A stretch of 32,000 nucleotides of DNA from Candidatus Saccharimonadota bacterium (GTDB taxonomy: Bacteria > Patescibacteriota > Patescibacteriia > 2-12-FULL-60-25), in contig CP064964.1 in assembly GCA_016699205.1 (NCBI GenBank), forward strand, positions 720,001 to 752,000. Reading direction: 5' to 3'. The notes beneath the pieces were generated by a model. That model saw only the letters and a program-made list of their open reading frames with translations, searched no databases and was not told the origin of the DNA. How positions within the stretch are numbered: position 1 is the first letter of the stretch; every line of letters begins with the position of its first letter. This document shows, piece after piece, positions 6,562-30,461 of this stretch. Position numbers and translations under genes: made by a program.

Positions 6562-6580
6562 AATGAAGTTATGAGATATC

Positions 6581-6658
6581 GAAAACGACCGTCGGAGCTT
6601 CTCTTGCGAGATGCTCACGACGGTCGTGATCAGAGTAGGGGCACATGGCAATGTGCCC
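6581..6658 (-). terminator. Terminator region of the minus-strand lipoprotein operon (two hairpins)
   Basis: On the minus strand just after the stop at 6667: gggcacat-tgcc-atgtgccc (6639-6658). Then a 10-bp perfect stem acgaccgtcg/cgacggtcgt (6585-6627) followed by TTTTC. Confidence 0.65.
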
Positions 6659-6666
6659 AAGTTGCG

Positions 6667-7440
6667 TCAGGGCGTTCCGGCCTGTCCGCAGTCGCCATTG
6701 GTGATCTGCCACTGCAGACCGCCAGCCATGTGGAATGGGTGAGTGCCGCGATATGCGGGAGCAGAGGCGAGCCGTCCACCTGCTGTGCGGTAGCAGAAGT
6801 AGGTGATCTCGTGACGGGGACGATCCGCGCCGTCGACGAGCGGGATGCTCATCGAAGTCGGAGACATGGGGCCCGCGCGCCGCGGGATCGCGGGCATCGC
6901 GCACATGCCGGACGTGTCGCTCACCATGAGGGGCGTTCCACCTGCAAAGGTGTGGACGACACGGCCATCGATCGCGATGGCGACATCGAAGATGGAGTTG
7001 TTCTGGACCAAGTAGTCCATGCCGTCCATCGTGTATGCTCCCCACGGCTCGGAGCCGGTGGAGAAGGCCATTGTGGAGGTCAGCATGCCCGAGGTGAGCA
7101 TGCCGGCACCGTCGACGCCGTCGCACATCTGGAGAACGCCAGGCATGCCGGTCGACGTCGTTCCGATGGGCGTCATGAGCGGGGCGCCCACGATGGGTGC
7201 GACGGGAGCGGATGCCACGACCGGAGCCGTGTCACCACCGCTGGTCTCGGAAGCGGGCTCGCGGCCGGCCATGAGGTCGGCGCGATCACGCTCGAGACGA
7301 GCGTTCTCCTCTTCCGCTTCCGTGGCACGTGCCTCGGCGCGGTCGAGACGCTCCATGATGGAGCGCATGTCGACGCTGCCGCCGCAGCCGATGAGGGTGA
7401 AGCAGGCGAGCGCGAACACGAACGAGAGGTGCTTGATCAT
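6667..7440 (-). CDS. Hypothetical lipoprotein with a short N-terminal coiled-coil (GC-rich cassette a)
   Basis: I chose ATG 7440 (MIKHLSFVFALACFTLIGCGG, lipobox LIGC). It is followed by RSIMERLDRAEARATEAEEENARLERDRADL, then a Met/Gly/Thr-rich region and a C-terminal domain with no family I recognise. The track ORF extends in frame to 7584 but lacks signal logic there. Confidence 0.7.
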   Translation of the reverse strand: MIKHLSFVFALACFTLIGCGGSVDMRSIMERLDRAEARATEAEEENARLERDRADLMAGREPASETSGGDTAPVVASAPVAPIVGAPLMTPIGTTSTGMPGVLQMCDGVDGAGMLTSGMLTSTMAFSTGSEPWGAYTMDGMDYLVQNNSIFDVAIAIDGRVVHTFAGGTPLMVSDTSGMCAMPAIPRRAGPMSPTSMSIPLVDGADRPRHEITYFCYRTAGGRLASAPAYRGTHPFHMAGGLQWQITNGDCGQAGTP

Positions 7441-7602
7441 CTGGGCCTCGTAGGGTTTTGGGTTGTTGTTTTGAGGAACGTTGGTCGTCTCAGGTTTGAG
7501 ACTTCCCTCCAAGTCATGAAGCTTGTTCATGATCATGTTCATGAATCGGAGGGAAGGAGCTCCAGGTGTAATCCCGGAGCTCACTTGCCAGAGTGATGTG
7601 TG

Positions 7603-8089
7603 TCAGCGAGAGCGAGGTGCGTGGTCGGCGCGGAGCTGGTCCTCGACGGCCTCGATGCGCGCCTCGAGCTCGGGGTCGGAAGTGACCTCGGCTTCGGGGA
7701 GCGGGCAGCTCCCGTCTGCGCAGGGCGACGATGTCATCGGCACGGAGGGAACGGCGGCCGAAGCTGCCATCCACTCGGCACGCCGAGAGGCTGCCATCAT
7801 CGTGAGCTCCGGGTTGGTGTACCCGGTGCCGTAGTAGGCCGATCCGCCGTAGGGCGAGATGCGGCCGCGCGCGCCCACGGGGAGCGCGCCTGCGGTGGAA
7901 ACCGGGGACGCCGACCATGGGGCCGGCTGCCATCGGACCGCCGACGCCGCCGCCTGCGGATCCGTAGGGACCCGAGCCGTAGCCGACGCCGCCGTAGGCG
8001 CCCATTCTGCCGCGGCCGTAGAGACCGCCGCAGCCGGACGCCATCGCGAGGAGCATGAGACCGAGGATCATCATGAGGTTCTTCATCAT
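7603..8089 (-). CDS. Hypothetical Gly/Tyr-rich lipoprotein, frame-broken in this assembly (cassette a)
   Basis: SD AAGGAG then ATGATG at 8089/8086. MMKNLMMILGLMLLAMASGCGG lipobox, then GLYGRGRMGAYGGVGYGSGPYGSAGGGVGG. Near 7880-7907 (G4 at 7904-7907) the plausible sequence continues in the +1 frame: ...ISPYGGSAYYGTGYTNPEL...DPELEARIEAVEDQLRADHAPRSR, stop 7603-7605. The length of 487 nt is not a multiple of 3. Confidence 0.55.
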
Positions 8090-8109
8090 CTTCTCCTTGT
8101 TCATCGAAT

Positions 8110-8535
8110 TCATCGAAGTCCGGGGGTGATCGAGAGGGTGGGAGAGGCGCCCCAGGCGTAGCCGAAGCCCATGCCTGGGGAAGCCGTTCATGTTCCAGCC
8201 CGCCATGCCGAATCCGCTCGTCTGCTGAAAGCAGGTCTGCTGGATGTCGGTCATCTCGGCCCAGTTGAGAACTCGGCCGGAGCGGTAGACGGGCATGAGT
8301 TGAGTGCGAACAGCGAGACAGCGCTCGTAGTCCGCGTCGGCCTCAAAATCCTCGTTGTACTCGGTGACGAGACCGCCGGCGTAGCTTGCGCTACGCATGG
8401 TGGTGTCGCCGCCCGGCCGCGTCGCGTGACGCTGGCCGTGTGGCTGCACCCCGAGATGCTATAGATGGCTACACCGATCAAGATGATCGGAAGCCACGAG
8501 ATCACGATCCAGAGACATCCTTCACGGTTGGGCAT
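8110..8535 (-). CDS. Hypothetical secreted protein or lipoprotein, two compensating frame breaks (cassette a)
   Basis: SD AAAGGAGGG then ATG 8535. Signal MPNREGCLWIVISWLPIILIGVAIYSISGC. The protein-like sequence continues in another frame (TTMRSASYAGGLVTEYNEDFEADADYERCLAVRTQLMPVYRSGRVLNWAEMTDIQQTCFQQTSGFGMAGWNMNGFP). It shifts again at the G4 run 8177-8180 to GMGFGYAWGASPTLSITPGLR, stop 8110-8112. That stop lies just upstream of the next gene's SD. Confidence 0.5.
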
Positions 8536-8624
8536 TTTCGCCCTCCTTTCTGTTAGACACACATGTTGTCCAAAGAACTTGTTGAGCTGTTTTGGCACCA
8601 TGCCTACTCCAACTCCAACGTAGT

Positions 8625-8653
8625 AATATAACATAAATAATGCCTTTTGTCAA
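8625..8653 (-). promoter_or_regulatory. Sigma70-type promoter of the minus-strand lipoprotein operon
   Basis: The minus strand reads TTGACA-17 nt-TATATT (-35 = 8648-8653, -10 = 8625-8630). It lies about 90 nt upstream of ATG 8535, in an AT-rich spacer. Confidence 0.7.
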
Positions 8654-8666
8654 GCTCATTATACTG

Positions 8667-8698
8667 TAAGGTTAGCCAAATAATCATGGCTAACCTTA
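8667..8698. promoter_or_regulatory. Perfect 11-bp inverted repeat between the divergent promoters (candidate operator)
   Basis: taaggttagcc (8667-8677), a 10-nt spacer, then ggctaacctta (8688-8698). It sits between the two -35 boxes. Confidence 0.45.
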
Positions 8699-8723
8699 GC
8701 AAAAATAAACGTGTTCACCTTTA

Positions 8724-8752
8724 TTGACAAAGGGGGCAATTTGTGCTATATT
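8724..8752 (+). promoter_or_regulatory. Sigma70-type promoter of the plus-strand operon of cassette a
   Basis: TTGACA (8724-8729), 17 nt, TATATT (8747-8752). These are the same hexamers and spacing as the divergent promoter. Confidence 0.7.
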
Positions 8753-8853
8753 ATTGTGTTCATTCTGGAGGATTGTCTCTTCCGGAATGGCGCTGTTTCA
8801 CAGCATGAGTTTGTAACAATCAACAGTTCCTCCGCCAAAAGCGGCGGAGAAAG

Positions 8854-9653
8854 GTGTCCCATGCCCCCAACGTGCCCCGTGTCGCCTCCTCGGGTCTCAG
8901 CAAGCTGTACCTCACTGAAGCATCCGGCTTCATTTCTGGACGGCTCGGCGAGCTCATCTTCAAGGCGGCTCCTCCTGCGCTCATCAGCAAGGCCGCGGGA
9001 ATGGTCCCCGATGGCATCCTCGATACGCCGGACCGTCAGAAGAGCTTCGCGTTCGCGCTCGGAATGTTTGCGCTTACGCTCTCCCAATCGGCGGCAGTCG
9101 CACAGGTCACGGAGAAGTTCTTGATTGAGTCGCTCGAGGAGCTCGCCCTGCGTAAGGGTGAGCTCGTCGGCAACGACGCCAAGAAAACGGCGATCATCAA
9201 GGATGTCTTCAACAAGCACGCTGCTCCGATCGACGCGTTGCGAGCAAGCATGTCCCGGGCGACGGCTCCTGGCCGGAACTTGTGGGACACGCTGGCCGTG
9301 CTCTCGGCGGACAAGCAGACCGCTTTCTGGGACTGGTTTCAGCTTCAGGAAGATGCCTTCCGCAAGGAGGTGCACGAGTCTGGTGCCGGAATCGTGGTGA
9401 GCGAAGAGCGTCTGCTCTCGTTCATCAGCGCGCCCGACAAGGTCAAGGCGGAATCGATGGAGCATCTGCTCAGGAAGAGCCCCAAGCTCGGACCGGGCAA
9501 GAGCGCTCTCGAGCGCTTCTTCGGAGACATCCGTGGCAAGGGGAAAAGTACCTCGAGCCGGATGGACCCGAGATGGTCGACTTCGCGACCAAGGCCACGG
9601 CCCGCGCCACCGATCGTAAGGATCGGGTGAAGGCTCGCAGCCGCATGTTCTGA
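8854..9653 (+). CDS. Hypothetical soluble, probably all-helical protein, frame-broken near its 3' end (cassette a)
   Basis: The high-GC3 frame runs from GTG 8854. Alternatively, ATG 8861 has better SD spacing if the C5 run at 8864-8868 carries an indel. At G4A4 (9540-9547) the plausible sequence moves to the -1 frame (...FFGDIRGKG / EKYLEPDGPEMVDFATKATARATDRKDRVKARSRMF, stop 9651-9653). No family recognised. Confidence 0.55.
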
Positions 9654-9751
9654 TCCATTGGCGTCCGCGCATCCTTTGTCCATGTTGGACGGGGATTGAG
9701 CGCGGACGTCATCCAACGATAAAGCGGGACATTGTCCCGAGAAGAGGGTTC

Positions 9752-11396
9752 ATGGACAAGCTCAAGGAAAGATCGTCGAGTGGGGAGAGGCTCTGCTCGC
9801 CCCGTTCATCCTGTTTCTCTACCGAGACCAGGTCTCGGCGCTCGCCAGCGATGTCTCGTCCTTCATGGTCGAGCATGTGCAGCTGGCGCGGATCTGGTGG
9901 AACTACAATCTGCCGGGCCGCGTTCGTCCGCTGCTGCTTCCCGTCCTCCTGATGACGATGCTCAGCTGGTTCGCCGGCTCGCTCGTCTTCTGGGGCATGC
10001 ATGTTCCGGAGGCGGGCTTCATCACCTACGTGTGCTGGACGGTTTGGAGCCTCGTGCTCGGAATCGTCATCCAGCGCGAGCGAGTGAAGCTCGGAAAGGT
10101 CAAGCCGATCACGCGTGCCGATCTCGAAAAGCTCGAGGCCGACACCGTGAACATGACCGATGCGGAAGCGCGTGCCGAGCGTGAGCAGCGCTTTGGTCCG
10201 ATGCGAGTCCTTGGACTTCGAGCCTTCGCGCTCGTGATCCTCGGATACTTGCTCATCGGCATCGGTCTCGCGCTCATGGGTAGCTTCTCCAACCTGGAGG
10301 GCAATCCCTGGCCCGTGACCGCACAGTTCATCCTGTTCGCGATCCTCGCGGCTTTCATCTCGCTCTTTGCAGCGATGCTGACGGCCGTGATCCTCGGTAC
10401 GGCGTTCCGCGTGGTCGGATCGATCGTGGTCGCCCTGTTCAAGGGCGGCTGGGACTCGGTTCTGACCATGCTGCCCAATGTCGAGGGGAAGAGGCCAAGG
10501 AGCTTCTGCCCAAGGATCTCGACAAGCAGCTCGCGCAGACGTGGAAGCTCTTCAAGGAATTCCTACTCAGCGCTCCCGGTGTCCTCATTCTTGGCGTGTT
10601 TGCGCTCGGGATTGTGTGGCATCACCCGCTCATCGTCTCGCTCCTGCTTCTGGCCTTCATCGGCCTCATGAGCACGACGACGTTTTCCATCGCGATGGGG
10701 AACGACGAGGCTCCGGCGCGCAAGCGTGCGGGCAAGATCGTCGCCTGGTTTTTCACCGGCGGCTTTCTCTACCGCTGTGCGGAGATGTGGTACTTCGGCC
10801 TCCCTGGAGGAACGTGGTACTGGAACTACGACAGCGTCGATTCGCCGCTCGCTCAGACGTGGAACCGAATCGTTCCTTGGTGGAATGGTTTCATGAACAT
10901 GAGCTGGTGGCAGGCGCTGCTCGTGGTCGCGGTTCTCGTGATCGCGATCATGTGCATCCTCAAGATGCCGGGTGGCAAGTGGTTCGAGCGTCTCAAGTAC
11001 GGACTGGTTGGCGTTTGCGGTGCTCTCATCGCGGCGACCATGATCGGCTTCATCGCGAACCGCGCTTCCGTGGATGCTTCGATCTCGACCATCGAGATCC
11101 CTGCGACTACGGAGAGCACTGACGCTACGACCGAAACGGCCGAGGCTCCGGCACATGTGCCCGACGCGATCGAACGGATGACGGGAACGGCGGAAGCGCC
11201 CACCCGGATTCCGCCGACCGCCCCGGTCGTGCCTGCAGCCGTGCCGGCGACTCACGTCGTCGAGCGCCGCTCTACGGAACGTGCAAGCGCTCCGTCTGCG
11301 GCCTCCGCCGATCCGTGCGAGAGCCTCGAGCGCTCGACCGGACTCACGGACCTGTTCCGTGAGAGCATGCGGCGCCGCTTCCACTGCGGCGGCTGA
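9752..11396 (+). CDS. Hypothetical polytopic membrane protein with Trp-rich loops and a Thr/Ala/Pro-rich tail; two frame breaks (cassette a)
   Basis: Three ORF segments (9752-, 9865-10671, 10596-11396) join into one protein if single bases are missing at A3 (9768-9770) and G4 (10485-10488). About 10 hydrophobic segments. Loops such as GGTWYWNYDSVDSPLAQTWNRIVPWWNGFMNMSWWQ. The start is uncertain; ATG 9865 is the alternative. Confidence 0.55.
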
Positions 11397-11433
11397 AACA
11401 ACGCACCTTCGTCCGCAAGGACACAATCTGATG

Positions 11434-11470
11434 AGCGCCCGTTCCAATTCTGGAGCGGGCGCTTTTCGTT
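11434..11470 (+). terminator. Rho-independent terminator closing cassette a
   Basis: agcgcccg, a 14-nt loop, then cgggcgct followed by TTTTCGTTT. Confidence 0.7.
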
Positions 11471-11488
11471 TCTGCTAAGATCTCGGAC

Positions 11489-12987
11489 ATGTTCAAGTGG
11501 CTCCGTTTTCCAGTTGCATTCTTTCTTGGCTCGGCCTGGTTCTCTTTGTTCCAGATCTGGGGTTCTTTTCCTGATCCGGATGCGTTTTATCATGCAAAAA
11601 TAGCCTCCTTGATGCTGGAGCGTGGGCCATTGCTGTCATTCCCGTGGCTGGATTTAACGGTGCTTCATTCTGGATTCAACGATCAGCATCTCTTGTTCCA
11701 TTATTTCTTGATGCCGTTTGTGAAATGGCTGGGGTTTTGCCGGGGCGCAGATTGCCGCTGTTGTGGCTGGAGGTCTATTTACGATGCTTGCCTTATGGGT
11801 GATTGAGAAGCTCTCGATACGTCATGCTTGGTTTTGGACCATCGTGATGATTGCCATGCCACCGATGATGACGAGGCTTTCTCTGGGTAAAGCATCGCCA
11901 TTTGCGATCGGGCTGTTTCTTTTGGGGATACTCGCCTGGAAAAAGAATACGCGCGTTTGGGCATTTTTAATCGGCGCTATTTATGCGTTCACGCATGGCG
12001 GCTGGCCATTGCTGATCGGTGCACAGATCGTTCTTTCAATGGGAATGTGGGTGTATGCGCGCTTTGTTAATGAAGAGCATGTTTGGCCTGATATGCGTAT
12101 CGCGATCGCGACATTGGGCGGGGGATTGTTTGGATCGTTTATTCATCCGAATTTTCCGGAGACCATTCCGTATCTTTGGGTTCAGATTTTTCAGATTGGT
12201 GTTGCGACGCCGATCGGACGGGTGATCATGGGAACGGAATGGTACCCATATGCGCCAATGGAGCTGCTTATGCATCTGTCATTGCTGATTGTGATCGGAT
12301 GTATTGCCGTTATTGGTTTTGTCAGGGCTCGTAAAAGCCAACTGGATGTTGTGCAGGCTTCATTTACGATTGGCTTGGGGTTACTTTCTGCGATTTTTTT
12401 GGCGCTTACGTTTAAGAGTGCGCGTTTTGTGGAGTATCTCGTTCCTGTTTCTGTTTTGTGGTTTGCAAGTTTGTTTCAGCAGATCGATGAGATGCAGCTC
12501 ATTGCTTCATTACGAAAATTGTTTCGGTATCTGCCGCATATTTTTGTGGTTGCGATGTTGTTTATCGTCGGTAAAGGCGCGATTGCGACGCGGCAGCAGC
12601 TGCGAGCGTCGGCTAAATCATTTACACGCTTTGAAAAATCGATACAGATTGTTTCTGATGAATTAAAACCAGGCGAACGATTGTTTCATTCCTGATTGGG
12701 GCCAGTTTCCTTTGCTGTGGAACAAGAATGATTCTTTGCGTTATGTCGCGGGACTTGATCCGGTGTTTTTATTGCAGGCTTCATCGACCTTATCTGATGC
12801 GTATACCGATTTGACTCTTGGAAAAAATACATCGACCGCCTTTGAAGTCATTTCCGGACTATTTGATTCGCGCATGGTTCTTGTTGAACGGAAGCCTGGT
12901 CAGAAGCTGGAGGAGATTTTGAAAAATGATCTGCGCTTCCAACAAGTGTATGCCGATGAAGAGGCCGTGATCTTTCGTTTGAAGTAA
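11489..12987 (+). CDS. GT-C-fold membrane glycosyltransferase-like protein (ArnT/PMT/STT3-like), split into three ORFs by two +1 frame breaks
   Basis: The segments 11489-11806, 11763-12695 and 12712-12987 read continuously if one base is removed near 11731-11738 (ctggggtttt) and one near 12688-12693 (cattcctga gives ...FHSDWGQFPLLWN). First-loop motif FPDPDAFYHAK. More than 10 TM segments and a soluble C-terminal domain. Family assignment is by motif and topology only. Confidence 0.55.
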
Positions 12988-13493: not shown

Positions 13494-14714
13494 ATGGCTA
13501 GTATGAAGTCGTGGACAGCGTATTACAAGCAGGCGGCGACTTGGATGATTTGGGGACTGCCTTTGGCGCTTCCGTTGTATTTGGTTCGATTCAAGATTGG
13601 ACCGTTGCCGACGACGGTACTTGAAGCGTATTTATTGGTTTTGTTTGTTGCTGCGACATTGGGATTTGGAATTGGTATTTGGAAAAAGGGATGGAAGGAA
13701 ATAGGGGAGTGGAAATGGCCTGTCGCGTTATGGTCGATTGCGACGTTGGCGGCGGTGTTTTGGTCGCCATCGATCGTGACCGGGCTTGGATTGTGGCGGG
13801 CGTATGTTTTGGAACCGGTGCTCGTTTTTATTTTGTTGTTTGGATTGCGCGAGGTTGTTGATCGGAAGCGGATCGAGCAAGCGATGAGGCTGGTGATCAC
13901 GATCGTTGGCTTTTGGGCGATTTATCAGTTCATTACGGGGCAAGGGATTCCGAGTCCTTGGAATGTTTCGATCGCGGAAGGCAGGCGCGCGACGGGACCG
14001 TTTCCGTATCCGAATGCGCTCGCGTTATTTGTGGTGCCGATGGGAGCGTATCTCTTTGCTCGAGCCACCTCTCCCTCGGTCCCTCTCCTTCGTAAGGAGA
14101 GGGAGGATTGGTTGGGGTTAATTAGTTGGGCGATGGCGGGGCTCTCGGCGTTTCTTGCGAAGAGTGATGGGGGAATGTTGGCGCTCGCGTCTGCGACTTG
14201 GTTCGTTCTTTTTGCGCGAAAGGAGACGCGACGGGTGGCGATCGCTCTAGCTGTTGTTGGAGTTGTCTTGATCGCGCTTGTCGCGCCGCTTCGAAATGCT
14301 TTTATCGAACAGGCGACGTTCTCTGGGTGGTCGGGGAGAGTTCGGACTTGGACTTGGACGGAGACTTGGAACATGTTGAAGGATAGGCCGGTTTTGGGTG
14401 CAGGATTTGGCGGGTATCCGACGGTGTTTAAGCCGTATCATGAGAAGACGTTTATCGAGATATTCCAGTATCCACATACGATCGTTTTTAATGTGTGGAG
14501 CGAAGCGGGATTGGTCGGTTTGTTTGTCTTTGGATGGATTGTCGTGACGTGGGTGCGTCGAAGGGTTTCTTGGATAGCGATGGCGCCTCTTATCGCCATC
14601 TTGATTCATGGCTTGGTGGACGTCCCGTACTTCAAGAATGATCTTGCGATTGCGTTTTGGTTGTTGGCTTTTTTAGCGACCATTCAGCTTGACCGAGAGG
14701 CCATTCGTCGATAG
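13494..14714 (+). CDS. O-antigen ligase (Wzy_C)-like polytopic membrane protein
   Basis: 406 aa with about 10-12 hydrophobic segments. N-terminal ...RFKIGPLPTTVLEAYLLVLFV and loop ...DRPVLGAGFGGYPTVFKPYHE are typical of the O-antigen-ligase-like family. Confidence 0.65.
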   Translation: MASMKSWTAYYKQAATWMIWGLPLALPLYLVRFKIGPLPTTVLEAYLLVLFVAATLGFGIGIWKKGWKEIGEWKWPVALWSIATLAAVFWSPSIVTGLGLWRAYVLEPVLVFILLFGLREVVDRKRIEQAMRLVITIVGFWAIYQFITGQGIPSPWNVSIAEGRRATGPFPYPNALALFVVPMGAYLFARATSPSVPLLRKEREDWLGLISWAMAGLSAFLAKSDGGMLALASATWFVLFARKETRRVAIALAVVGVVLIALVAPLRNAFIEQATFSGWSGRVRTWTWTETWNMLKDRPVLGAGFGGYPTVFKPYHEKTFIEIFQYPHTIVFNVWSEAGLVGLFVFGWIVVTWVRRRVSWIAMAPLIAILIHGLVDVPYFKNDLAIAFWLLAFLATIQLDREAIRR

Positions 14715-14738
14715 TATCCTGCTGCCTATCGACCAAAT

Positions 14739-14828
14739 GGAGAGGTGGCAGAGTGGTCGAACGCGCTGGACTCGAAATCCAGTATAGCTTCACGGCTATC
14801 GAGGGTTCGAATCCCTCCCTCTCCGCCA
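14739..14828 (+). tRNA. tRNA-Ser (anticodon CGA), type II with long variable arm, CCA encoded
   Basis: Acceptor GGAGAGG/CCTCTCC. Anticodon stem-loop ctgga-CTCGAAA-tccag. Variable arm atagc/gctat. T arm gaggg-TTCGAAT-ccctc. Discriminator G plus CCA. The D stem has one A:C mismatch. Confidence 0.9.
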
Positions 14829-14865
14829 CGTAAAAACGACAGCCTCACGCTGTCGTTTTTACGTG
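14827..14865. terminator. 17-bp perfect-stem hairpin abutting the tRNA 3' end (bidirectional terminator)
   Basis: cacgtaaaaacgacagc-ctcac-gctgtcgtttttacgtg. Confidence 0.7.
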
Positions 14866-14957
14866 CCCCGTGATCCGAGTAGCAACGAGGATTTTACGGG
14901 GCTCCGTTGTGCTGTCGTTCACGTGGCGCAGCCAGCCGTCAATCGTGTTAGGATTGA

Positions 14958-15320: not shown

Positions 15321-15394
15321 AAATTTTTATGTAACAAATCGCCCGAAAGGTCGGTTTTCTTTTTTGTTATCGTCGTATTATGCTATCGATTGAT

Positions 15395-15646: not shown

Positions 15647-15722
15647 ATATTATTTTTACTTCTATTTGATTTGAAGCGCCGTGGCTTACGGCGGTTTCAA
15701 AGCGATCGTACAGCGTTAAATG

Positions 15723-22801: not shown

Positions 22802-22827
22802 AGCATTGACCATAGAACATTAAGCAT

Positions 22828-23514
22828 ATGAATAATTCAGTTACACCGGCCACCAATGACGCTCGTAAGGGTGATGTTGTTGCACCTACAAAGGAAAAGG
22901 GCTGGTTCTACACGGATACCGTGAAGGATCACTTTTTTCATCCGAAGAATTTTCTTGAGGATGAGGCAGGATATGGCGATGCGTATCTTGGAATGGTGGG
23001 ATCGCCGGCCTGTGGTGATGCGATGAAGGTTTGGTTGAAGATCGAAAAGGAGGCGGATGGGACGGAGCGCATCAAGGATTTCAAATGGAAGACATTTGGA
23101 TGTGCTTCCGCGATTGCATCGACCTCGATGTTGTCTGTCATGGTTACGGAAAATGGTGGAATGCCGATTGAAGCGGCCTTGGCGTTGCGTCCGCAGGATA
23201 TTATGGAGCGACTTGGAGGACTGCCGGCGAGAAAAGTTCATTGCTCGGTGCTTGGCGACAAAGCGTTGCGTAGCGCGGTGATGGATTACTATCGCAAGAG
23301 CGGGCAGATCGACAAAGTCGAGGTGGAGGCGGGGCGTTTGATCGACAAAGTATTGAAAATTACGGATCACGATATTGAAGAGGCGGTGTTGGAGGGTGCG
23401 GATACGCTGGAGAAAGTGCAGGCTCGTACAAAAGTTGGAACGGGGGATCCGTCTTGTATTCCTGAGGTCGAGAACTTGATCCGGTTTTACAAAGAGAAGT
23501 ACTTTGGGGCATAA
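22828..23514 (+). CDS. nifU: NifU/IscU-type Fe-S cluster scaffold with a C-terminal extension
   Basis: The three scaffold Cys are in the usual contexts (GSPACGD, FGCASAIAS, KVHCSVLG). The C-terminal ~70 aa resembles a BFD-like domain layout, but I see only one Cys. Confidence 0.85.
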   Translation: MNNSVTPATNDARKGDVVAPTKEKGWFYTDTVKDHFFHPKNFLEDEAGYGDAYLGMVGSPACGDAMKVWLKIEKEADGTERIKDFKWKTFGCASAIASTSMLSVMVTENGGMPIEAALALRPQDIMERLGGLPARKVHCSVLGDKALRSAVMDYYRKSGQIDKVEVEAGRLIDKVLKITDHDIEEAVLEGADTLEKVQARTKVGTGDPSCIPEVENLIRFYKEKYFGA

Positions 23515-23526
23515 TCGCCGCACTGT

Positions 23527-23745
23527 ATGAAGATTTCCAAGATCGTCGTTGATCGCGACCTCTGTATCGGGGCTGCTCCGTGCGTGACGGTTGCTCCGGG
23601 GGTGTTTCAGCTCGATGAAGAAAATAAGGCTTACGTCGTTGACCCAAAGGCAGCGGATGACGAGACGATTTTGCTCGCGGCCCAGGCATGTCCCGTGCAA
23701 GCCATCATCTTGTTTGATGAAGAAGGTAAGCAGATTTATCCGTAA
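23527..23745 (+). CDS. Small single-cluster ferredoxin
   Basis: 72 aa. DRDLCIGAAPCVTVAPGVF...AAQACPVQAI pattern of short 4Fe-4S/3Fe-4S ferredoxins. Confidence 0.75.
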   Translation: MKISKIVVDRDLCIGAAPCVTVAPGVFQLDEENKAYVVDPKAADDETILLAAQACPVQAIILFDEEGKQIYP

Positions 23746-23751
23746 ATGACG

Positions 23752-23782
23752 AGCGCCCCGTATCAGATCGATACGGGGCGCT
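23752..23782. terminator. Bidirectional hairpin terminator between ferredoxin (+) and cassette c (-)
   Basis: agcgccccgtatc-agatc-gatacggggcgct, a 13-bp perfect stem. Confidence 0.7.
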
Positions 23783-23787
23783 TTCAG

Positions 23788-24675
23788 TCAGAGCTGGATG
23801 CCGGTGGTGATGCGCAGTGTGTGCAGGAAGGAGAGGAGCTTGAAGCCAGTGGTGGCGACGAGCGGATCCTCCGAGTTCTGCATGTCCTCGAACAGATGTC
23901 CGTACGAGGCGATCGCCTTGGTGAGTTCGAGATAGTCGTCCTTGTACATCCCGGTGATGCTCAAGGCGCTTTCGAGTTCCGCGACGCGGTGGCTGAGCGT
24001 GAGCTCGAGATGCTTGATAACCTCGCGCTGACGTAGGATCTCGTGGGAGAGCAGGCGGCCGTTCTCGCGATGATCGCTGTTCTGCTGCTTGATTCGAGCG
24101 AGCGTGCTCCGGATGCCATCGAGCGCGGTCATCTCCTTGCGGAGTTCGCCGAGCTCTTCTGATGCACGGACGAGCCGGTCGCGGGACTGGCTGCCGTAGC
24201 TGATGGCGGCTTCACGAACCAGCTGGTTGGCAAAGCGCGTGAGCATCGGGTTGTGCTCGTGCTCGATGGAGGCGAAGTCGATGACGCGGACGGTGACGTC
24301 CGTTTTGGCGACGACGCGCGAGCATTGGCTGAGCCCGATGATGTCGGTGGCGTTCAGACTGCGCTCGTCTGCCTCGGGGAGGCCCCGAGAGGTGAGCACG
24401 GATTCAGAGGCGCGACCGCTCTCGATGAAGTAGAAGATCTTGGAGATCTTTTCCTCGCTCACGATGATCTCACCGCGGGCAAAGCGCTTCTCCGGGAGCG
24501 CGAGGAGCAGGGTCTCCTCGTTGTCCGGTTTGCTCGGAGCGCCCGTGATCGGGATCTCCATGCGTACGGTTGGCGGTCCCTCGGTTTCGAAGGACACCGT
24601 TTCATCCCTACGCGGGGACCTCACGCGAGGTACCAACGCGAGATGCGTGGGCTTGGGCGTGTTGCTGTTACCCAT
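23788..24675 (-). CDS. Hypothetical protein with a cyclic-nucleotide-binding-like domain and a C-terminal coiled-coil (cassette c)
   Basis: ATG 24675 is preceded by SD AAGGAGG (6-nt spacer). FARGEIIVSEEKISKIFYFIESGRA...ATDIIGLSQ...AKTDVTVRVIDFASI fits the cNMP-binding beta-roll pattern by eye. A heptad-rich stretch follows (ELGELRKEMTALDGIRSTLARIKQQ...HLELTLSHRVAELESAL). Confidence 0.6.
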   Translation of the reverse strand: MGNSNTPKPTHLALVPRVRSPRRDETVSFETEGPPTVRMEIPITGAPSKPDNEETLLLALPEKRFARGEIIVSEEKISKIFYFIESGRASESVLTSRGLPEADERSLNATDIIGLSQCSRVVAKTDVTVRVIDFASIEHEHNPMLTRFANQLVREAAISYGSQSRDRLVRASEELGELRKEMTALDGIRSTLARIKQQNSDHRENGRLLSHEILRQREVIKHLELTLSHRVAELESALSITGMYKDDYLELTKAIASYGHLFEDMQNSEDPLVATTGFKLLSFLHTLRITTGIQL

Positions 24676-24729
24676 TAACGTCCTCCTTAAAGGTGGGGCG
24701 TTCCCGGAATCATATCCGGAGAACAAAAG

Positions 24730-24758
24730 AACTTACAGGAAAACGGGGCTTTTGTCAA
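24730..24758 (-). promoter_or_regulatory. Sigma70-type promoter for cassette c
   Basis: The minus strand reads TTGACA (24753-24758), 17 nt, TAAGTT (24730-24735). Confidence 0.55.
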
Positions 24759-24770
24759 TCCATGACGCCC

Positions 24771-25931
24771 TTATTTTTTCATCAAAATCACGATTTTTCT
24801 GCGAACATGCTGGTCAGGACGCGCGTAGGTTAGCGGTTTTCCGATGAGGGTGTAGCCGGCTTCTTCTGCGGCCTGAATTGGGTTTACGGAGAAGGTCCCA
24901 TGCGAGGCGATGAGATCTGGCCAAACAGCCACAAGCCGGCCGCCAGAGGGCTGAAGGTCGGCTAAAACAGGCAGGGCTTCACTCCAGAGTTCCTCGATCT
25001 CCCGCTGTTCTTTTTCAAGCGTTGAGCGGCTTTCGTTTCCGGAGAGCGGTGTACCCAAATAACCTTCCGTCACGATGGCATCAAATTGTTTGCCGGTGAG
25101 ATGTTTGCCAATTTCTTGAACCGGAGCGATGTTCCAGCTGATGCGGTCGGCGTCTGCGCGGCGGATAAGCTCTTTGCTCATGAGCCATTCGGTATTTTCT
25201 TGGGCGCCGGCGATTTGGCGCGCATCAATATCGGAACCGACGAGTTGGAGATCTTTATGTAAAAGCGCGGCTTCCATGATGACGGTACCGCTGCCGCAGA
25301 ATGGATCGAGCAAAGCCTGTTTTGGCGCGGCCAAATTAACCATCATGCGTGCGAGCTTGGGCGGGAGCATGCCGGTTTTTGCATCGCGGAATGGACGGCC
25401 AAAATCGCGTAAGCTCCAGGCATCGATGTTCTGAACTTGGGTTGTGAGACCGATGGAAACGGTTTTGCCGTGAATCGCAATAACAAAATCGTAGCCATCG
25501 GTGGTGAGGCCCATTTTGGAAATGGCGGCAGGGGAGAGGATGCCGTTGTCGCCCGTGACCCAGCGCACGGAGCGCCCACGTTCTTGGAGTTCGCGCTTTA
25601 ATCGGATGGGGAGATGTTTGAGTGCTTGTCGATCTTTATTGGTACCGCCGATGATGGTGATGCCAAAAAGGACACGTTCACCGCGCGGGCGGGCATCGAT
25701 ATGGTCGGCGAGAACCTTTCCGTCATCGAGTACATCTAGGGTTCGTTCATCGATAATATCGCCGAGCTTCACGGTGCCGGCTAAACGGTTTTGGAGATCG
25801 GCGCTGTCCCAGGTGGCGGCTTCAAAGATGGCGACGGAATCGACCATAACGGGCTTGAGATCGCCAAGGACGGCCCGAGTCTCCGCAAGGGAGATTTCAG
25901 GATGAGTTCCGTATACAAGAAAACGCTTCAT
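24771..25931 (-). CDS. SAM-dependent RNA methyltransferase (Trm11/UPF0020-like)
   Basis: 386 aa. N-terminal RNA-binding-like domain. Motif I LLDPFCGSGTV. Motif IV-like IVTEGYLGTP. Specificity not determinable from sequence. Confidence 0.6.
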   Translation of the reverse strand: MKRFLVYGTHPEISLAETRAVLGDLKPVMVDSVAIFEAATWDSADLQNRLAGTVKLGDIIDERTLDVLDDGKVLADHIDARPRGERVLFGITIIGGTNKDRQALKHLPIRLKRELQERGRSVRWVTGDNGILSPAAISKMGLTTDGYDFVIAIHGKTVSIGLTTQVQNIDAWSLRDFGRPFRDAKTGMLPPKLARMMVNLAAPKQALLDPFCGSGTVIMEAALLHKDLQLVGSDIDARQIAGAQENTEWLMSKELIRRADADRISWNIAPVQEIGKHLTGKQFDAIVTEGYLGTPLSGNESRSTLEKEQREIEELWSEALPVLADLQPSGGRLVAVWPDLIASHGTFSVNPIQAAEEAGYTLIGKPLTYARPDQHVRRKIVILMKK

Positions 25932-25939
25932 TAAGCCGT

Positions 25940-25969
25940 ATTTTAGCCATAGAATGGCGGAGAATGCAA
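25940..25969 (-). promoter_or_regulatory. Candidate promoter of the methyltransferase gene (near-leaderless)
   Basis: The minus strand reads TTGCAT (25964-25969), 18 nt, TAAAAT (25940-25945). Only 8 nt separate the -10 from ATG 25931. Confidence 0.4.
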
Positions 25970-26086
25970 CCTTGACATTTCTCCTAATGTATGATGAGCT
26001 GAACCGTCGCTTTCCGGGTCTGCCGGAGGCGATCGGTCCGCTCCTTCGAACCGAATAAAGAAGAAGGAAGAGAAAGGGAGTCCGTC

Positions 26087-28420
26087 ATGCCGCGTTTCCT
26101 CACCGCTCTCGTTGCGGTCTGTATCCTCGTTCTTGGGTCGACGACAGCGTCGGCGCAGGATCAGCCCATGCCGGGCCGGGGAGAGATCCTCGAGCTACGG
26201 CGTGATGACCCGCGTAACACGGACGGCTACCGAAGCTTCATCTTCGGCAGCTGGACGTCTGGCATGGGAGGTCTCCGCGACATCCTCGACCGCGTGAATG
26301 CGGATCTCGAGGGTGACTCGCGCGTGACCTGGGAGCAGCTCGACGCTGCCAACCCCTGCATCATCATCTATCGCCGCAACGGCCACCGCTTTGGCCACAA
26401 CGGAAGCTGCAGTACCAACTCGACGGAAGAGCGCGTCACGTACGCCTCGTACTGCGAGGGGGATCCTACCTGTGCCCGCTGGCCGATGGCTGGCCGTGTG
26501 TACCGCATCCCGGCTCGTTCTCGGCTCACGCCGGGAGAACGCGCCGAGGAGATGGTACGGACGCTCGACGAGACGACGGTGACCGAGACGGTCCCGGCGC
26601 CTGCCGAGATGGGCGGTTGGCTTACCGAGCTCTCTGACCTCATGGGTGAAGAGCAAGGTCCGACCTATGATCAGGTGCGTAGTGTCCTCGGAGCTGTTGG
26701 TCGTACGCTTACGCGTGCGGAGACGGCATCAGCTGGAACGGGTGCTCACGAGGCATCTGAACCTGCTGCCACGGCGGACACGCACGCGGATATGACGTTC
26801 ACCGATGAGAGTCTCCCGGGAACGTCTGAAGATGAAGCTGCTCTGCGCCCGACGAGCGCAGAAGACGGTACACTTACCTCGTCAACATCCGATGGAGCTG
26901 CCACCTCCATTCTGATGAACCCTCAACTCCTGTGGCTCATCATCGCGATCATGTCCGTCGCGTTGATTCTCCTTCTTCTTAAGGACAAAATCCGAGCATG
27001 GTACAGGCCCACGCTTTCGGATCACGATCATGATTTGCCTGAAACGGGACCTGTCCCCCCGGCTCTCACCAAAGAGCAAGAGCAGGACATCAGGCTGGCC
27101 ACCGGCCTCAAGCGCCGTTGGAAGCAATACTTCCGAGATCTCAAGCGCAACGACCAGTTGACGCTCGAGACTCTCTTCCTCTTCTTTGATACGGCTGCGA
27201 CCAATCACGCGTTGGTCGACGATCGTGAGAAGAAGATCAAGGAGCTGGAAGAGCTCAAGGAGAAGGTTGATCGGCTCAGCGTCGCTCAGACGGCATTGCC
27301 GATCGAGGATCCCCGGATCCCCGAGCTCGAGCGTCAGCTGCGTGAAGCGACTGACGCCAAGGATCGCGCCGAGTCGGCCAAGAGCACCGCGGAAGCCATG
27401 GCGCTTCGTCTTGGTCTCGAGCATCCCACGGCCCTTCGTAAGAAGGACGAGGAACATGCGGTCACCAAGGCCGCGCTCGAGTCGCTCCAGAACGAGTTCA
27501 AGGCTTTCAAGGCCAATGGGCTCAAGCTGCTCGAGTTGTTTTACCAGGATGGCGCTGCCAACCTGGAACTCGCTCTCGACCATGCGTCGCGTAGCGGCGA
27601 GATCTCCACTCCGTCCTTCGTGACGATCATCGAGCGCGTCTCGTCTGCACGAGATCTCTTCAAGGGGATGGTTCGCGGGGTCCTGAACGACCTCATGATC
27701 CTCTTCGAGTCGGATCTCGCGATGGTTCCGGCACCGGCGGCGAATGCTCCTTTCGCGGGAGCGTCTGCTCAGACCCCTGGGTTTGGTGGTAGCACTGATT
27801 CCTGGGAACGCTCGCTCGATGAGAGCGGGTCGGATCTGGCAACCGATCCGACGCAGCATGGTGTACGGGTGCCGGGATTTGGCGGATATGCTCCCGCTCA
27901 TGAACCGGCGTCGGTACCTCCCGAAGAGCCGGCTGTGATTCCGCCCGTGGAGTCGCTTTCACTCAAGGGGGAGGCGACCAATCCCGGGATTCCGGCTCCT
28001 GATAACGTCACGTTCCGCATGAGCCAGCACGCGCCTCCGCCGCCCGAGCGACCGAATGGCAAGAAGCGCAACCGTGATCGCAAGACCACGGACAGCTTCG
28101 AGCGTCAACCGGTCGCCAAGGCGCTCGAGGAGCGCCGAGACGAGAAGACGGCAGTGATCGATCCGAAGGATCTCGAGCACAAGAAGCTCGAGGCCCGTAC
28201 CGGGAAGACCATCTCGCCGGGCATGACTGCCGCCGCTCGCGACGACAGTCCGATCCCCGGATCGCTCGTTCCGCCGCCTCCGCCGATCGTCACGCTCGAC
28301 GCCAGCAATGGTGAAGAGCCGGACGTATCGCGGCCTGCATCACTGAGTATCTTCGATGACCTTACTGGGTCGGGTGGAGAGACGGGTGTCACGGTCAAGC
28401 GCGCGATCGGCAAGGACTGA
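26087..28420 (+). CDS. Large bitopic protein: signal peptide, Cys-containing LysM-like ectodomain, TM, long coiled-coil, Pro-rich disordered tail (cassette d, paralog 1)
   Basis: 777 aa. SD AAGGGAG. Signal MPRFLTALVAVCILVLGSTTASAQ. Ectodomain ...LRDILDRVNADLEGDSRVTWEQLDAANPCIIIY...MAGRVYRIPA. TM LLWLIIAIMSVALILLLL. Heptad-rich 27.0-27.7 kb, then a P/E/S-rich tail. A TTGACA lies at 25972-25977 without a convincing -10. Confidence 0.7.
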   Translation: MPRFLTALVAVCILVLGSTTASAQDQPMPGRGEILELRRDDPRNTDGYRSFIFGSWTSGMGGLRDILDRVNADLEGDSRVTWEQLDAANPCIIIYRRNGHRFGHNGSCSTNSTEERVTYASYCEGDPTCARWPMAGRVYRIPARSRLTPGERAEEMVRTLDETTVTETVPAPAEMGGWLTELSDLMGEEQGPTYDQVRSVLGAVGRTLTRAETASAGTGAHEASEPAATADTHADMTFTDESLPGTSEDEAALRPTSAEDGTLTSSTSDGAATSILMNPQLLWLIIAIMSVALILLLLKDKIRAWYRPTLSDHDHDLPETGPVPPALTKEQEQDIRLATGLKRRWKQYFRDLKRNDQLTLETLFLFFDTAATNHALVDDREKKIKELEELKEKVDRLSVAQTALPIEDPRIPELERQLREATDAKDRAESAKSTAEAMALRLGLEHPTALRKKDEEHAVTKAALESLQNEFKAFKANGLKLLELFYQDGAANLELALDHASRSGEISTPSFVTIIERVSSARDLFKGMVRGVLNDLMILFESDLAMVPAPAANAPFAGASAQTPGFGGSTDSWERSLDESGSDLATDPTQHGVRVPGFGGYAPAHEPASVPPEEPAVIPPVESLSLKGEATNPGIPAPDNVTFRMSQHAPPPPERPNGKKRNRDRKTTDSFERQPVAKALEERRDEKTAVIDPKDLEHKKLEARTGKTISPGMTAAARDDSPIPGSLVPPPPPIVTLDASNGEEPDVSRPASLSIFDDLTGSGGETGVTVKRAIGKD

Positions 28421-28431
28421 TCCCACAACTG

Positions 28432-28478
28432 AAGGCCCCGTATCGCATTTCTGCGGTACGGGGCCTTGACTTTTTCTT
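28432..28478 (+). terminator. Rho-independent terminator between the two cassette d genes
   Basis: aaggccccgta, a 14-nt loop, then tacggggcctt followed by gaCTTTTTCTTT. The 3' arm overlaps a TTGACT box. Confidence 0.7.
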
Positions 28479-28529
28479 TAAATATTGTCCAAATGAGGCT
28501 GGGTCTTTCATACCCAGAGGGAGTCATTC

Positions 28530-30461
28530 ATGAACGGATACCGGCTGACGCTCGGCTGCATGATTGCGGTCGTTTGCGCGACCGCCTTCATGACCTTTTC
28601 CACGACCGCCGAAGCCCAGGTGCGCGTCATCGAACGCGATACCGATGGCTTCACTGTTCGCATCGAGTCTGGTGCCCGTTTGCGGCATCTTGCGCACGCG
28701 ATCGGCATGGAGCCGGACATGGATCAGATCGCCCGGAGCAATCCGGGCCACATCATCTATGTCTGCCGCGACAATATGCCTGGTGAGCGGCCCTACATGA
28801 GCCGTGATCCGGAATCGTGGAATGCTTGCCAGCATTTTTCGCGGGAACGGTGGCTGTTGGCCGGTGTCACGTATTACGTGCCCCTGCGGTTCGAGTCGGC
28901 GCCTGTTGCCTCGGATGCTCCGCCTGCCGAATCGCTTTGGCGGGAGGAGGGGCTGCGTTCACACAACCGTCTGCTCGAGCGTCGCATCACTGAACTCGAG
29001 ACGGATCTCGAGACGGCGCATAATGCTTTGATCGAAGCAGATGACCGGGCCGACGAAGCTGCAGCGTCTACGGCGTTGCTCCGCGACAGCAATGCCCGCC
29101 TCGAGAGCGACATGACGGGAATGGGCTGGCTCGCCGCCTTGTTCTCCCTGCTGTTTCTGCTCATGGGGTTCGGAGCGCTGTATGTGCTCTGGCGAACGCG
29201 TCTCATGTTGCGGCGTATCATGGATTCTGCACGGCGCGAACGTGTCGCTTGGAGCCAGTATGCCGACAAGATGCGCCGCAATCGCGACGAGATCATTGGA
29301 ACGCTAACCAGCAAGGTTAGCAGCCTGAACAGTCAGATCGAGATGCTTAAGCGCAACATCTCGGAGACTTCGAACGAACTAGCGCAAACGCAAACGCAGC
29401 AAGGACGGCTGCGGCGGCGTACCAATCTTCTTCTCGTCCAATTGGCCAAGTACCGGAAGTTGCTTCGCCAATGCTATTCAGCCATTCAACACTTCCAGCG
29501 GCGTCTGTCAGAGGAGACAGCACACCGTGAACGCCTTCCAACACTCCTCAAGTCAGTGGATGATGCGCGTCTCCAACTGATCTACGCAAATAATGCGCGC
29601 GCCCGCGTCGACATGGTTCGTCGATGGCTCATGTATGTCTACTCACGACGACGTACGATGGCTCCGACCATGCGCAAGATCACGGTGCTTGCGTACTTGG
29701 GTGTCATTGCCCAGTATCGCAAGCAGCAAAGGGAGTTCGAGCAAAAGGCTCGCGAGTTGGAGCCTGCCAAGCTTGAAGCGATCGAGACGATCTACAAGCT
29801 GACAGGTATTCGCGCCGATCACCTCGATCCGGAAAGCCGATTGAAGCGCTCCATGGAGGCGGCGGATAAAAACGCCGAGCTGCTCGACTCGCAGACGCAA
29901 GCTCTCAACGAGCTCATTCAGATCCAGATCCGCCTGCAAGGCGAGTTTGATGCCCGTGAAAAGGGGATCGAGTCGCGTGAAGAGCAGCTTGGAAAAGCGG
30001 AAGCTGAATACGTCGAGCGTCTTCACAAGCAAGGCCTACGCGAACGCGAGCATGCGGCACAGGTCGATGCTTGGAACAAGGAGCTCGAGCTCAAGAAGGA
30101 GATCGACGCTTGGTCGGGCGCTGCTCTCAAGGCAGAGACCACCGGCAAGCTCTCGGATGTCGAGAGGCGCATGAGCGAGATGGAAGGCCGCATGAACGGG
30201 TATGAGCGTCGTGCGATTTCCGCTGAGAAGGATCTCGACGAAACCAACGATTTCCTCGAAGTGGCCCGCAAGGAGTTCAAGGCGGCCAAGGAATTGATCG
30301 AAGGGATCAAGAAGGGTCCCAATTTCCTGGAAGCCAGAACGGCGCAGATGGCCGAGTACATTTCCCAGCTGGAGGAGAAGCTCGGGATCGAGCGTAAGTC
30401 CATCTGGGCTGGCTTGCCCGACTTGGCCTACGGCTCGGTTCCGCCCAAGGCAAAGGCCTAA
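28530..30461 (+). CDS. Large bitopic protein: signal peptide, LysM-like ectodomain, coiled-coil, TM, very long coiled-coil (cassette d, paralog 2)
   Basis: 643 aa. Signal MNGYRLTLGCMIAVVCATAFMTFSTTAEAQ. Ectodomain FTVRIESGARLRHLAHAIGMEPDMDQIARSNPGHIIYVC...LLAGVTYYVPL. TM WLAALFSLLFLLMGFGALYVLW. The remaining ~420 aa are heptad-rich (E/K/R/L/Q). Confidence 0.7.
   Translation: MNGYRLTLGCMIAVVCATAFMTFSTTAEAQVRVIERDTDGFTVRIESGARLRHLAHAIGMEPDMDQIARSNPGHIIYVCRDNMPGERPYMSRDPESWNACQHFSRERWLLAGVTYYVPLRFESAPVASDAPPAESLWREEGLRSHNRLLERRITELETDLETAHNALIEADDRADEAAASTALLRDSNARLESDMTGMGWLAALFSLLFLLMGFGALYVLWRTRLMLRRIMDSARRERVAWSQYADKMRRNRDEIIGTLTSKVSSLNSQIEMLKRNISETSNELAQTQTQQGRLRRRTNLLLVQLAKYRKLLRQCYSAIQHFQRRLSEETAHRERLPTLLKSVDDARLQLIYANNARARVDMVRRWLMYVYSRRRTMAPTMRKITVLAYLGVIAQYRKQQREFEQKARELEPAKLEAIETIYKLTGIRADHLDPESRLKRSMEAADKNAELLDSQTQALNELIQIQIRLQGEFDAREKGIESREEQLGKAEAEYVERLHKQGLREREHAAQVDAWNKELELKKEIDAWSGAALKAETTGKLSDVERRMSEMEGRMNGYERRAISAEKDLDETNDFLEVARKEFKAAKELIEGIKKGPNFLEARTAQMAEYISQLEEKLGIERKSIWAGLPDLAYGSVPPKAKA

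Follow-up and report, generated by a model that had tools for sequence, protein, structure and literature searches.

Four G+C-rich gene blocks in a Candidatus Uhrbacteria locus are written in the preferred codons of the organism

Two kinds of described systems come closest to what we report here. One is major-codon bias, of the type captured by the codon adaptation index in highly expressed bacterial genes; the other is the genomic island of atypical guanine-plus-cytosine (G+C) content. We analysed a stretch of 32,000 nucleotides (nt), called the window below (assembly GCA_016699205.1, contig CP064964.1, positions 720,001 to 752,000 of the forward strand), in which four G+C-rich gene blocks, a to d, interrupt a housekeeping backbone. 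As in major-codon bias, the blocks use a fixed, mainly C-ending set of codons that is common to ribosomal-protein and elongation-factor genes, and their bias is restricted to synonymous positions and conserved in orthologues. As in genomic islands, they lie about 0.1 above their flanks in G+C, are bounded by spacers and are without housekeeping functions, and one of them, block b, shows presence and absence among relatives.

Our central observation is that the blocks favour the codons that the organism itself prefers, and do so no less strongly than its ribosomal-protein genes. We consider it fairly probable that all four consist of native, fast-evolving Uhrbacteria genes that make up the upper of two codon-usage classes in the genome, held there by selection linked to high expression. 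The G+C excess would then be a by-product of codon choice in reading frames and not a sign of foreign DNA.

The nearest public relatives of the window are metagenome-assembled genomes of Candidatus Uhrbacteria, members of the candidate phyla radiation (CPR). Conspecific loci used for comparison were L094 (GCA_963851785.1; 95-97% nucleotide identity), L091 (JGI 3300056827; 97.85% identity, gap-free over 21574-32000) and L097 (99.2% identity over 20084-21234). Sister species were represented by L006, L085 and L001 (all GCA_021413945.1) and by L087/L088, and more distant relatives by L005 and L090. Gene frames were assigned by frame-specific G+C at third codon positions (GC3) together with the intact genes of L094.

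Base composition and codon usage of the blocks

The G+C excess of the blocks is restricted to reading frames, and chiefly to third codon positions. Against a window value of 0.546, blocks a, b, c and d have a G+C of 0.616, 0.591, 0.617 and 0.600, their 800-nt flanks 0.495-0.544, and when blocks of equal size were placed at random, the observed mean was attained in only 3 of 20000 trials. A sliding profile is raised at 6600-8600 (0.61-0.73), 8800-11600 (0.60-0.68), 20400-21000 (0.605), 23800-24600 (0.62-0.64) and 26000-29200 (0.56-0.66). GC3 separates the two groups of genes completely, with 0.69-0.83 in 10 open reading frame (ORF) segments of the blocks versus 0.38-0.63 in 22 backbone genes (Mann-Whitney U = 220 of 220, p = 4e-6). 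The first-pass annotation, made from the letters of the window, had thus been right to set four G+C-rich blocks against poorer flanks, and its spot counts (45/60 at 7621-7680, 32/60 at 12001-12060 and 21/60 at 15181-15240) are exact. Its picture of G+C-rich cassettes holds overall, except that block a is not uniform and contains an AT-rich core (8536-8860) with a G+C of 0.42.

The noncoding parts of the blocks do not take part in the excess. Spacers within and beside the blocks (promoters, untranslated regions (UTRs) and intra-operon spacers; 1117 nt) have a G+C of 0.472 versus 0.494 for backbone spacers, and the block-embedded spacers, of 75-325 nt each, lie at 0.38-0.56 (pooled 0.47). In b and c, G+C at first and second codon positions (GC1 and GC2) is at backbone level and GC3 alone is raised. 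GC2 is also somewhat raised in a and d1, which fits their Ala-, Gly- and Pro-rich linkers.

In pooled codon tables ATC, TTC, TAC, AAC, GAC, CTC, GTC, GGC, GCC, ACC and AAG are raised in the blocks, while GGG, GCG and TTG are lowered; besides TTG and GGG, block genes avoid ATT and CTT. The backbone has a strong strand skew, and the comparison of blocks with translation genes was therefore repeated with genes of one strand only. An argument that only C-ending codons rise, as proof of selection, was dropped because the strong replication-strand skew confounds it. On the same strand, the codon shift of the blocks and that of rpsF, rpsR, ssb and EF-P, each taken against the backbone, correlate with r = 0.86 (p = 1e-18, 59 codons). 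Among G/C-ending codons r is 0.75, and among A/T-ending ones 0.87. Sorted by third base, the shift in blocks and translation genes is +0.28 and +0.24 for C, -0.21 and -0.17 for T, and 0.00 and -0.04 for G. This bears out one of two readings offered by the first-pass annotation, namely that the blocks are a native class sharing the C-ending preference of rpsF, ssb and rpsR.

Codon usage in 75 genes, drawn from the window and three loci related to it, was put through a principal component analysis, whose first component (PC1) holds 31% of the variance. On it, block genes all lie at +1.75 to +6.4 and translation genes at 0 to +1.6. Backbone genes are negative almost throughout; the exceptions are five minus-strand or L001 genes at 0.15-1.97. 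Ribosomal GC3 reaches 0.78 in rpsO, 0.69-0.79 in rpsR and 0.67-0.73 in rpsF. High-GC3 genes with no recorded Pfam hit also make up 5 of 17 genes in L001, with several more in L091 and L092; as these lie in unrelated parts of the genome, the class is genome-wide and not special to the window. A literature search found no paper on such a codon class in CPR bacteria.

Further genes of this kind, with GC3 of 0.70-0.89, lie at 25-1077, 3244-4308, 14059-14505 and 17831-18715 of L001 and at 13909-15911, 16472-16681 and 19999-20376 of L091.

Descent of the blocks and the weighing of explanations

Blocks a, c and d have been inherited vertically and have diverged together with their flanks, as indicated by synteny and by synonymous divergence (dS) at backbone level. 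The interval from nifU/ferredoxin to rpsF holds c, d1 and d2 in L085 and L088 as well, with GC3 of 0.84, 0.74-0.75 and 0.70-0.71, versus 0.54-0.57 for IscS, NifU and CopA. Diverged orthologues occupy the same positions in L005, with GC3 of 0.60 for c, 0.58 for d1 and 0.50 for d2 versus a backbone of 0.40-0.45. In L090, block a lies upstream of the same membrane-protein gene in the same divergent layout (GC3 0.67-0.79 versus 0.38-0.51). The excess is kept in orthologues or homologues of five other genomes. Measured from the window to L088 or L085, dS spans 0.46-1.27 for block genes, against 0.53-1.35 for the backbone. The ratio of nonsynonymous to synonymous divergence (dN/dS) is 0.21-0.43 versus 0.04-0.17; the block proteins have evolved 3-15 times faster than the backbone and are the fastest in the region. 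An earlier argument from saturated synonymous sites between the window and L088 was dropped, since four-fold sites are about half-way to saturation, and the dS comparison was used in its place.

We propose that selection on synonymous codons, tied to high expression, would most likely drive the C-ending preference, and that the products would be abundant envelope and structural proteins. A link to high expression fits the near-consensus promoters (10-11/12), the strong Shine-Dalgarno sequences and the clean terminators of the blocks. It also fits the coding-specific excess, its codon-by-codon match to translation genes and its conservation across genomes of differing base composition.

Several points weigh against this link. 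On PC1 the block genes go beyond rpsF, ssb and EF-P in bias, and T-ending four-fold codons are rarer in them than in translation genes (CTT 0.13 versus 0.32; GTT 0.18 versus 0.25); this stronger avoidance of T leaves room for some extra push toward G+C. The translation reference set is small, at 1404 codons. The block genes have the highest dN/dS in the region, whereas highly expressed genes usually evolve slowly, and dS is not lowered in d1 and d2, contrary to what strong codon selection predicts. CPR bacteria have small genomes and presumably grow slowly, and strong translational selection is unexpected in them. We take the high dN/dS and the unreduced dS to lower confidence in the expression link and not in the description of the codon class. 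As a tentative extension, about which we are doubtful, a codon bias on a par with or beyond that of ribosomal-protein genes raises the possibility that conserved, fast-evolving, lineage-restricted envelope and coiled-coil proteins are the dominant expressed proteome of this Uhrbacteria lineage. Such proteins could, for instance, make up a surface or attachment apparatus that is under diversifying selection.

The strongest alternative is that GC3 is kept high independently of expression, by a process linked to recombination or by another one unrelated to translation; GC-biased gene conversion and selection on G+C for mRNA properties are examples. The excess of bias over rpsF, ssb and EF-P, the more complete loss of T-ending codons and the rapid evolution of the proteins would all suit such a process, and mosaic strain comparisons with L091 and L094 show active homologous recombination. 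However, a process acting on tracts should not spare the embedded spacers, which stay at the low G+C given above, and the mosaic breakpoints are not specific to the blocks. Nor is the shift a strand-symmetric one from AT to GC: G-ending codons as a whole are flat, and GGG, GCG and TTG fall while C-ending codons rise. Finally, codon for codon the shift parallels the one seen in translation genes, also when the comparison is narrowed to G/C-ending codons. We therefore think this explanation unlikely, and continue to favour codon selection linked to expression.

The first-pass annotation had also offered the reading that the blocks are horizontally acquired, and islands from a donor of higher G+C (a host, neighbour, phage or plasmid) whose composition is still on its way to that of the genome would account for the sharp contrast, the spacer boundaries, the blocks' own promoters and terminators and the lack of recognisable functions. 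Block b, moreover, does vary in presence between related species, and a sister genome has it at a different place. Given that synteny of a, c and d extends to four further genomes (L085, L088, L005 or L090), down to a backbone amino-acid identity of about 65-70% and with their GC3 excess over the local backbone retained, that dS is at backbone level, even b having a dS of 0.58 to its L001 copy, within the range of orthologues, that the noncoding parts are not G+C-rich, that the codon preferences are those of the host's ribosomal-protein genes (CTC rather than CTG, for example), and that the homologues detected are all from CPR, we regard acquisition as very improbable. The first-pass annotation had itself named orthologues at the same positions, of like composition, as the outcome that would refute an accessory or acquired origin, and this is what the relatives show for a, c and d. 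No integrase, transposase or flanking repeat was found at the blocks, the only tRNA gene (14739-14828) adjoins none of them, and Pfam, PHROGs and PADLOC gave no mobility hits. A phage or plasmid origin was rejected after viral-contig scans with b, d1 and a4 came back empty; across the block products PHROGs and PADLOC gave no credible match, only generic coiled-coil matches for d2, whose family matches are all of that generic kind.

That the contrast is an artefact of a contig chimeric between organisms or strains is exceedingly improbable: several 1-nt homopolymer indels do occur in the window, concentrated in block a, but the same gene order and contrast recur in independent JGI, NCBI, ENA and Logan assemblies (L085, L088, L091-L094, L097, L090), which are colinear across the block boundaries wherever a covering contig was compared. 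Recent horizontal transfer and chimeric assembly can in effect be set aside for blocks a, c and d.

The genes of each block and their setting

Where the first-pass annotation had counted seven products, we find nine genes (block a has five, block d two, and b and c one each; Table 1). They encode three lipoproteins, one secreted protein, one polytopic membrane protein, two bitopic coiled-coil proteins, the c product (a weak cyclic-nucleotide-monophosphate (cNMP)-binding-like region with predicted helices) and one soluble protein. As had been stated, none has a recognisable housekeeping function, no product reaching a curated Pfam or NCBIfam threshold. The claim that all are envelope or coiled-coil proteins applies to most of them, the exception being the b product, which is soluble and has no signal peptide, membrane helix or long coiled coil. 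Hairpin terminators at the 3' ends and TTGACA -35 boxes at the 5' ends were confirmed; good -10 boxes accompany them in a, b and c, and not in d. The suggestion of a coordinated set acting as one system was not sustained, as the genes fall into five or six separate transcription units with only codon style in common. Sequence searches of the Protein Data Bank (PDB) with a1, a3, b and the d1 ectodomain gave no match.

Table 1. Positions of the block genes and their signals in the window (aa, amino acids).
Feature	Position	Strand	Description
a1	6670-7530	-	lipoprotein, 286 aa (257 aa if start at 7440); lipobox LIGC, then short Ala/Glu/Arg-rich helix and Cys-containing globular domain; GC3 0.79
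a2B	7606-8086	-	Gly-rich lipoprotein, 160 aa; lipobox ASGC; broken in the window by a 1-nt homopolymer indel at ~7899
a2A	8113-8535	-	141 aa; N-terminal membrane/lipobox segment ISGC; Shine-Dalgarno GGAGGG upstream
AT-rich core promoter	8653-8625	-	TTGACA-17-TATATT with TG extension
AT-rich core promoter	8724-8752	+	TTGACA-17-TATATT with TG extension
a3	8861-9650	+	secreted protein; internal signal-like segment SFAFALGMFALTLSQSAAVAQ; start uncertain (8861 or 8998)
a4a5	9751-11396	+	one polytopic membrane protein, ~549 aa
a4a5 terminator	11433-11464		hairpin
b unit	20190-21080	+	promoter TTGACA-16-TAATAT at 20190-20217; 5' UTR of ~110 nt
b ORF	20332-21003	+	223 aa, soluble; GC3 0.83
b terminator	21044-21071		hairpin
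c terminator	23750-23785		hairpin
c	23788-24675	-	295 aa; GC3 0.82
c promoter	24758-24730	-	TTGACA-17-TAAGTT
d1	26087-28420	+	777-aa bitopic protein; TTGACA -35 box at 25972-25977; signal peptide, ~130-aa ectodomain, acidic/Ala-rich linker, one membrane helix, long helical (coiled-coil-like) and low-complexity cytoplasmic tail
d1 terminator	28432-28467		hairpin
d2	28530-30461	+	643-aa bitopic protein; architecture as d1
d2 terminator	~30487-30533		hairpin

Block a consists of two operons that diverge from the AT-rich core, with a2A, a2B and a1 on the minus strand and a3 and a4a5 on the plus strand. No promoter match in the regions scanned is better than the two core promoters, which both score 11/12; a comparable AT-rich gap separates the divergent block a genes of L090. 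The a1 product is 95% identical to an intact 286-aa gene of L094 and has 11 relatives among 1.84 billion representatives. Its N-terminus resembles the alanine-zipper lipoproteins Lpp and OprI below threshold (E 0.0026, 18 bits, cut-off 43). A metagenome scan with a5 found no close relatives, and its one match, of 29 aa at the C-terminus, led to the syntenic contig L090.

Four genes of block a are interrupted in the window. Relative to L094, runs of G, C or A differ in length by 1 nt at 7899, 8177, 8415, 8864, 9540, 9768 and 10485, which breaks a2B, a2A, a3 and a4a5. A tblastn search with the intact a2B gene of L094 (GC3 0.86; 58% identity in the L090 homologue) returns residues 1-62 and 55-160 in two frames, the indel lying in a GGGG run. 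The a2A gene, broken at about 8415 and 8177, is intact in L094 and has 59% identity over 80 aa to the syntenic gene of L090. The a3 gene (GC3 0.74-0.79), with indels at about 8864 and 9540, is 99.6% identical to L094 over residues 43-269, after which the frame changes. Indels at about 9768 and 10485, in A/G runs, split a4a5 (GC3 0.79-0.82) into ORFs 9865-10671 and 10596-11396; in L094 (549 aa) and L090 (562 aa) one ORF spans the whole gene. The frameshifts are probably assembly or sequencing errors, true pseudogenisation being less likely.

Block b shares the codon class, and comparison of related loci marks it as the sole block to have moved within the genome, as a whole unit from promoter to terminator. 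The window and L097 hold about 900 extra bp at the junction of dsbB and rrf2. Only 48-72 bp separate dsbB from rrf2 in L006 and L088, and in L005 rrf2 directly follows the ATPase gene; b is not at this site in these three species. In the sister genome (L001) a copy with 68% protein identity lies between a tRNA-synthetase gene and RNase J, and promoter, UTR, ORF and terminator can all be aligned with those of the window. Accordingly, the description of self-contained cassettes in the first-pass annotation suits b, a complete unit that is present or absent at dsbB-rrf2 and found at another locus in a sister genome, and not, taken literally, a, c or d. The motif TTGACAA stands at both junctions, at 20190 and 21098: the left junction is a TTGACA box overlapping the dsbB stop codon, and the second TTGACAA precedes the orthologous rrf2 promoter. 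Relocation into the rrf2 promoter region would probably have occurred by illegitimate recombination at this shared box. No repeat family or inverted repeat was found in the flanks of b, nor any integrase-like ORF in the window.

Homologues of b number 79, and every one with a named source is from CPR. Their GC3 is 0.87 in L001 and 0.77 in L003, with 0.68 in the weakest L003 paralogue. Two more members of the family occur in L003 (conspecific, a contig of L094) at 8829-9422 and 10001-10705, with 40% and 66% identity to b of the window and one small gene between them, so the family is multi-copy. The predicted structure of b has a mean pLDDT (predicted local distance difference test) of 87.9, and a fold search gave a weak C-type lectin resemblance for its C-terminal domain (best E 0.07; template modelling scores of about 0.3 and 0.5), which is a lead and not an assignment. 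The 5' UTR (20218-20331) is partly conserved with the L001 copy at its other locus and may contain a structured regulatory RNA; at gathering thresholds Rfam found nothing in it.

The hairpin downstream of c is bidirectional and common to c and the small ferredoxin gene. The c product has a beta-rich N-terminal half and a helical C-terminal half, the helices being predicted at low confidence, and its predicted model (mean pLDDT 47.7) is too low in confidence for use. It matches PF00027 (cNMP_binding) with E 5.5e-4 and 20.3 bits, under the cut-off of 27.5; a precomputed Pfam hit is listed for its orthologues P0083 and P0085. A profile search of PDB gave the cyclic-nucleotide-binding domains of HCN, PKA and PKG at E 0.008-0.5. 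An identical protein is named 'CRP-like' by JGI. Six homologues were found; orthologues at the same position have 78-81% identity in L085 and L088, and the positional orthologue in L005 has 26%.

The two d products are themselves marginally alike in their ectodomains (25% identity over 150 aa, E 0.011). Syntenic orthologues of d1 (GC3 0.70 in the window, and 0.58 in L005 against a backbone of 0.42 there) show 53-55% identity in L085 and L088, while the L005 one shows 50% along its first 210 aa from the N-terminus; those of d2 show 39-45% in L085 and L088, with a dN/dS of 0.35-0.43. Exact-sequence look-ups of d1, IscS (with its GTG start) and DsbB returned no record.

The backbone of the window comprises, in order, galU, a solute-binding protein gene, six tandem PF18895 pilin genes, a Wzy_C ligase gene, tRNA-Ser, barstar and a zinc-ribbon protein gene, followed by histidine phosphatase, DsbD, a copper-type P-type ATPase, DsbB and Rrf2-IscS-NifU, and ending with the small ferredoxin, a UPF0020 methyltransferase and rpsF-ssb-rpsR. 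Two backbone genes are also split in the window. A membrane-protein gene (11489/11763/12712, region 11489-12987) is one 500-aa ORF in L090, and the HMA domain at 17595-18092 and the P-type ATPase at 18068-19747 form one gene of 737-746 aa in L087/L088.

The six pilin genes (PF18895, T4SS_pilin; 2507-6423) share about 80% identity between conspecific strains versus 96-97% for their flanking genes, so the array evolves faster than its flanks; despite this, its GC3 of 0.49-0.58 is at backbone level. An element of about 50 nt that forms a hairpin (core CCCTCTCCTTACGAAGGAGAGGG, 14063-14113) lies in frame inside the Wzy_C (O-antigen-ligase-like) ORF at 13494-14714. It adds about 8 residues, SPSVPLLRKERED, which the L090 orthologue lacks; a copy with 85% identity lies in an intergenic spacer of the sister genome (L001 10758-10809). 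The element resembles small palindromic elements that insert into ORFs. Strain identities along the window are mosaic: with L091 they are 90-92% over iscS (21574-23173) and 98-100% from 23174 on, and with L094 the segment 7082-9332 is near-identical while its flanks differ by 3-10%. Such mosaics point to frequent homologous recombination in the population.

Significance and relation to known systems

This analysis removes a false lead, as the G+C-rich blocks here are not imports from a host or neighbour. Native and imported DNA could be told apart from sequence by the noncoding DNA of the blocks, the same-strand codon match to ribosomal-protein genes and dS against a sister genome. The nine uncharacterised genes, with similar ones elsewhere, are reasonable first targets for proteomics and structural work on Uhrbacteria. 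Block b offers one clean case in which a whole transcription unit was relocated without recognisable mobility machinery. If such proteins are indeed the dominant expressed proteome, GC3 or codon class could be a sequence-only proxy for functionally central unknown proteins in uncultured CPR bacteria, and strong translational selection would be acting in a genome of about 1 Mb, where it is unexpected.

Of the described systems, genomic islands differ from the blocks in several respects. We found no mobility genes, repeats or tRNA targets, noncoding DNA and codon style are host-like, and a, c and d are vertical. Integron cassettes and other promoter-carrying cassettes resemble b in that it is a single-gene, self-contained unit at different loci in related genomes; unlike them, b has no attC-like repeat, integrase or array, and its only junction feature is the duplicated TTGACAA -35 box.

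At the level of single proteins, a1 is like Lpp and OprI in that its lipobox is followed at once by an Ala/Glu/Arg-rich helix, and unlike them in that the match is sub-threshold and a large extra globular domain is present. The c product is like cyclic-nucleotide-binding proteins in its beta-rich, weakly matching segment, and unlike them in that this match too is sub-threshold and its other end is helical; no DNA-binding domain was detectable in it.

Major-codon bias remains the closest parallel. The differences are that the strongest members here are lineage-restricted genes of high dN/dS and no known function and not conserved housekeeping genes, and that the host is a CPR bacterium with a genome of about 1 Mb, in which strong codon selection is unexpected. 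In conclusion, the codon phenomenon is of a known kind, while the gene families that carry it are uncharacterised and are probably abundant, fast-evolving envelope or structural proteins.

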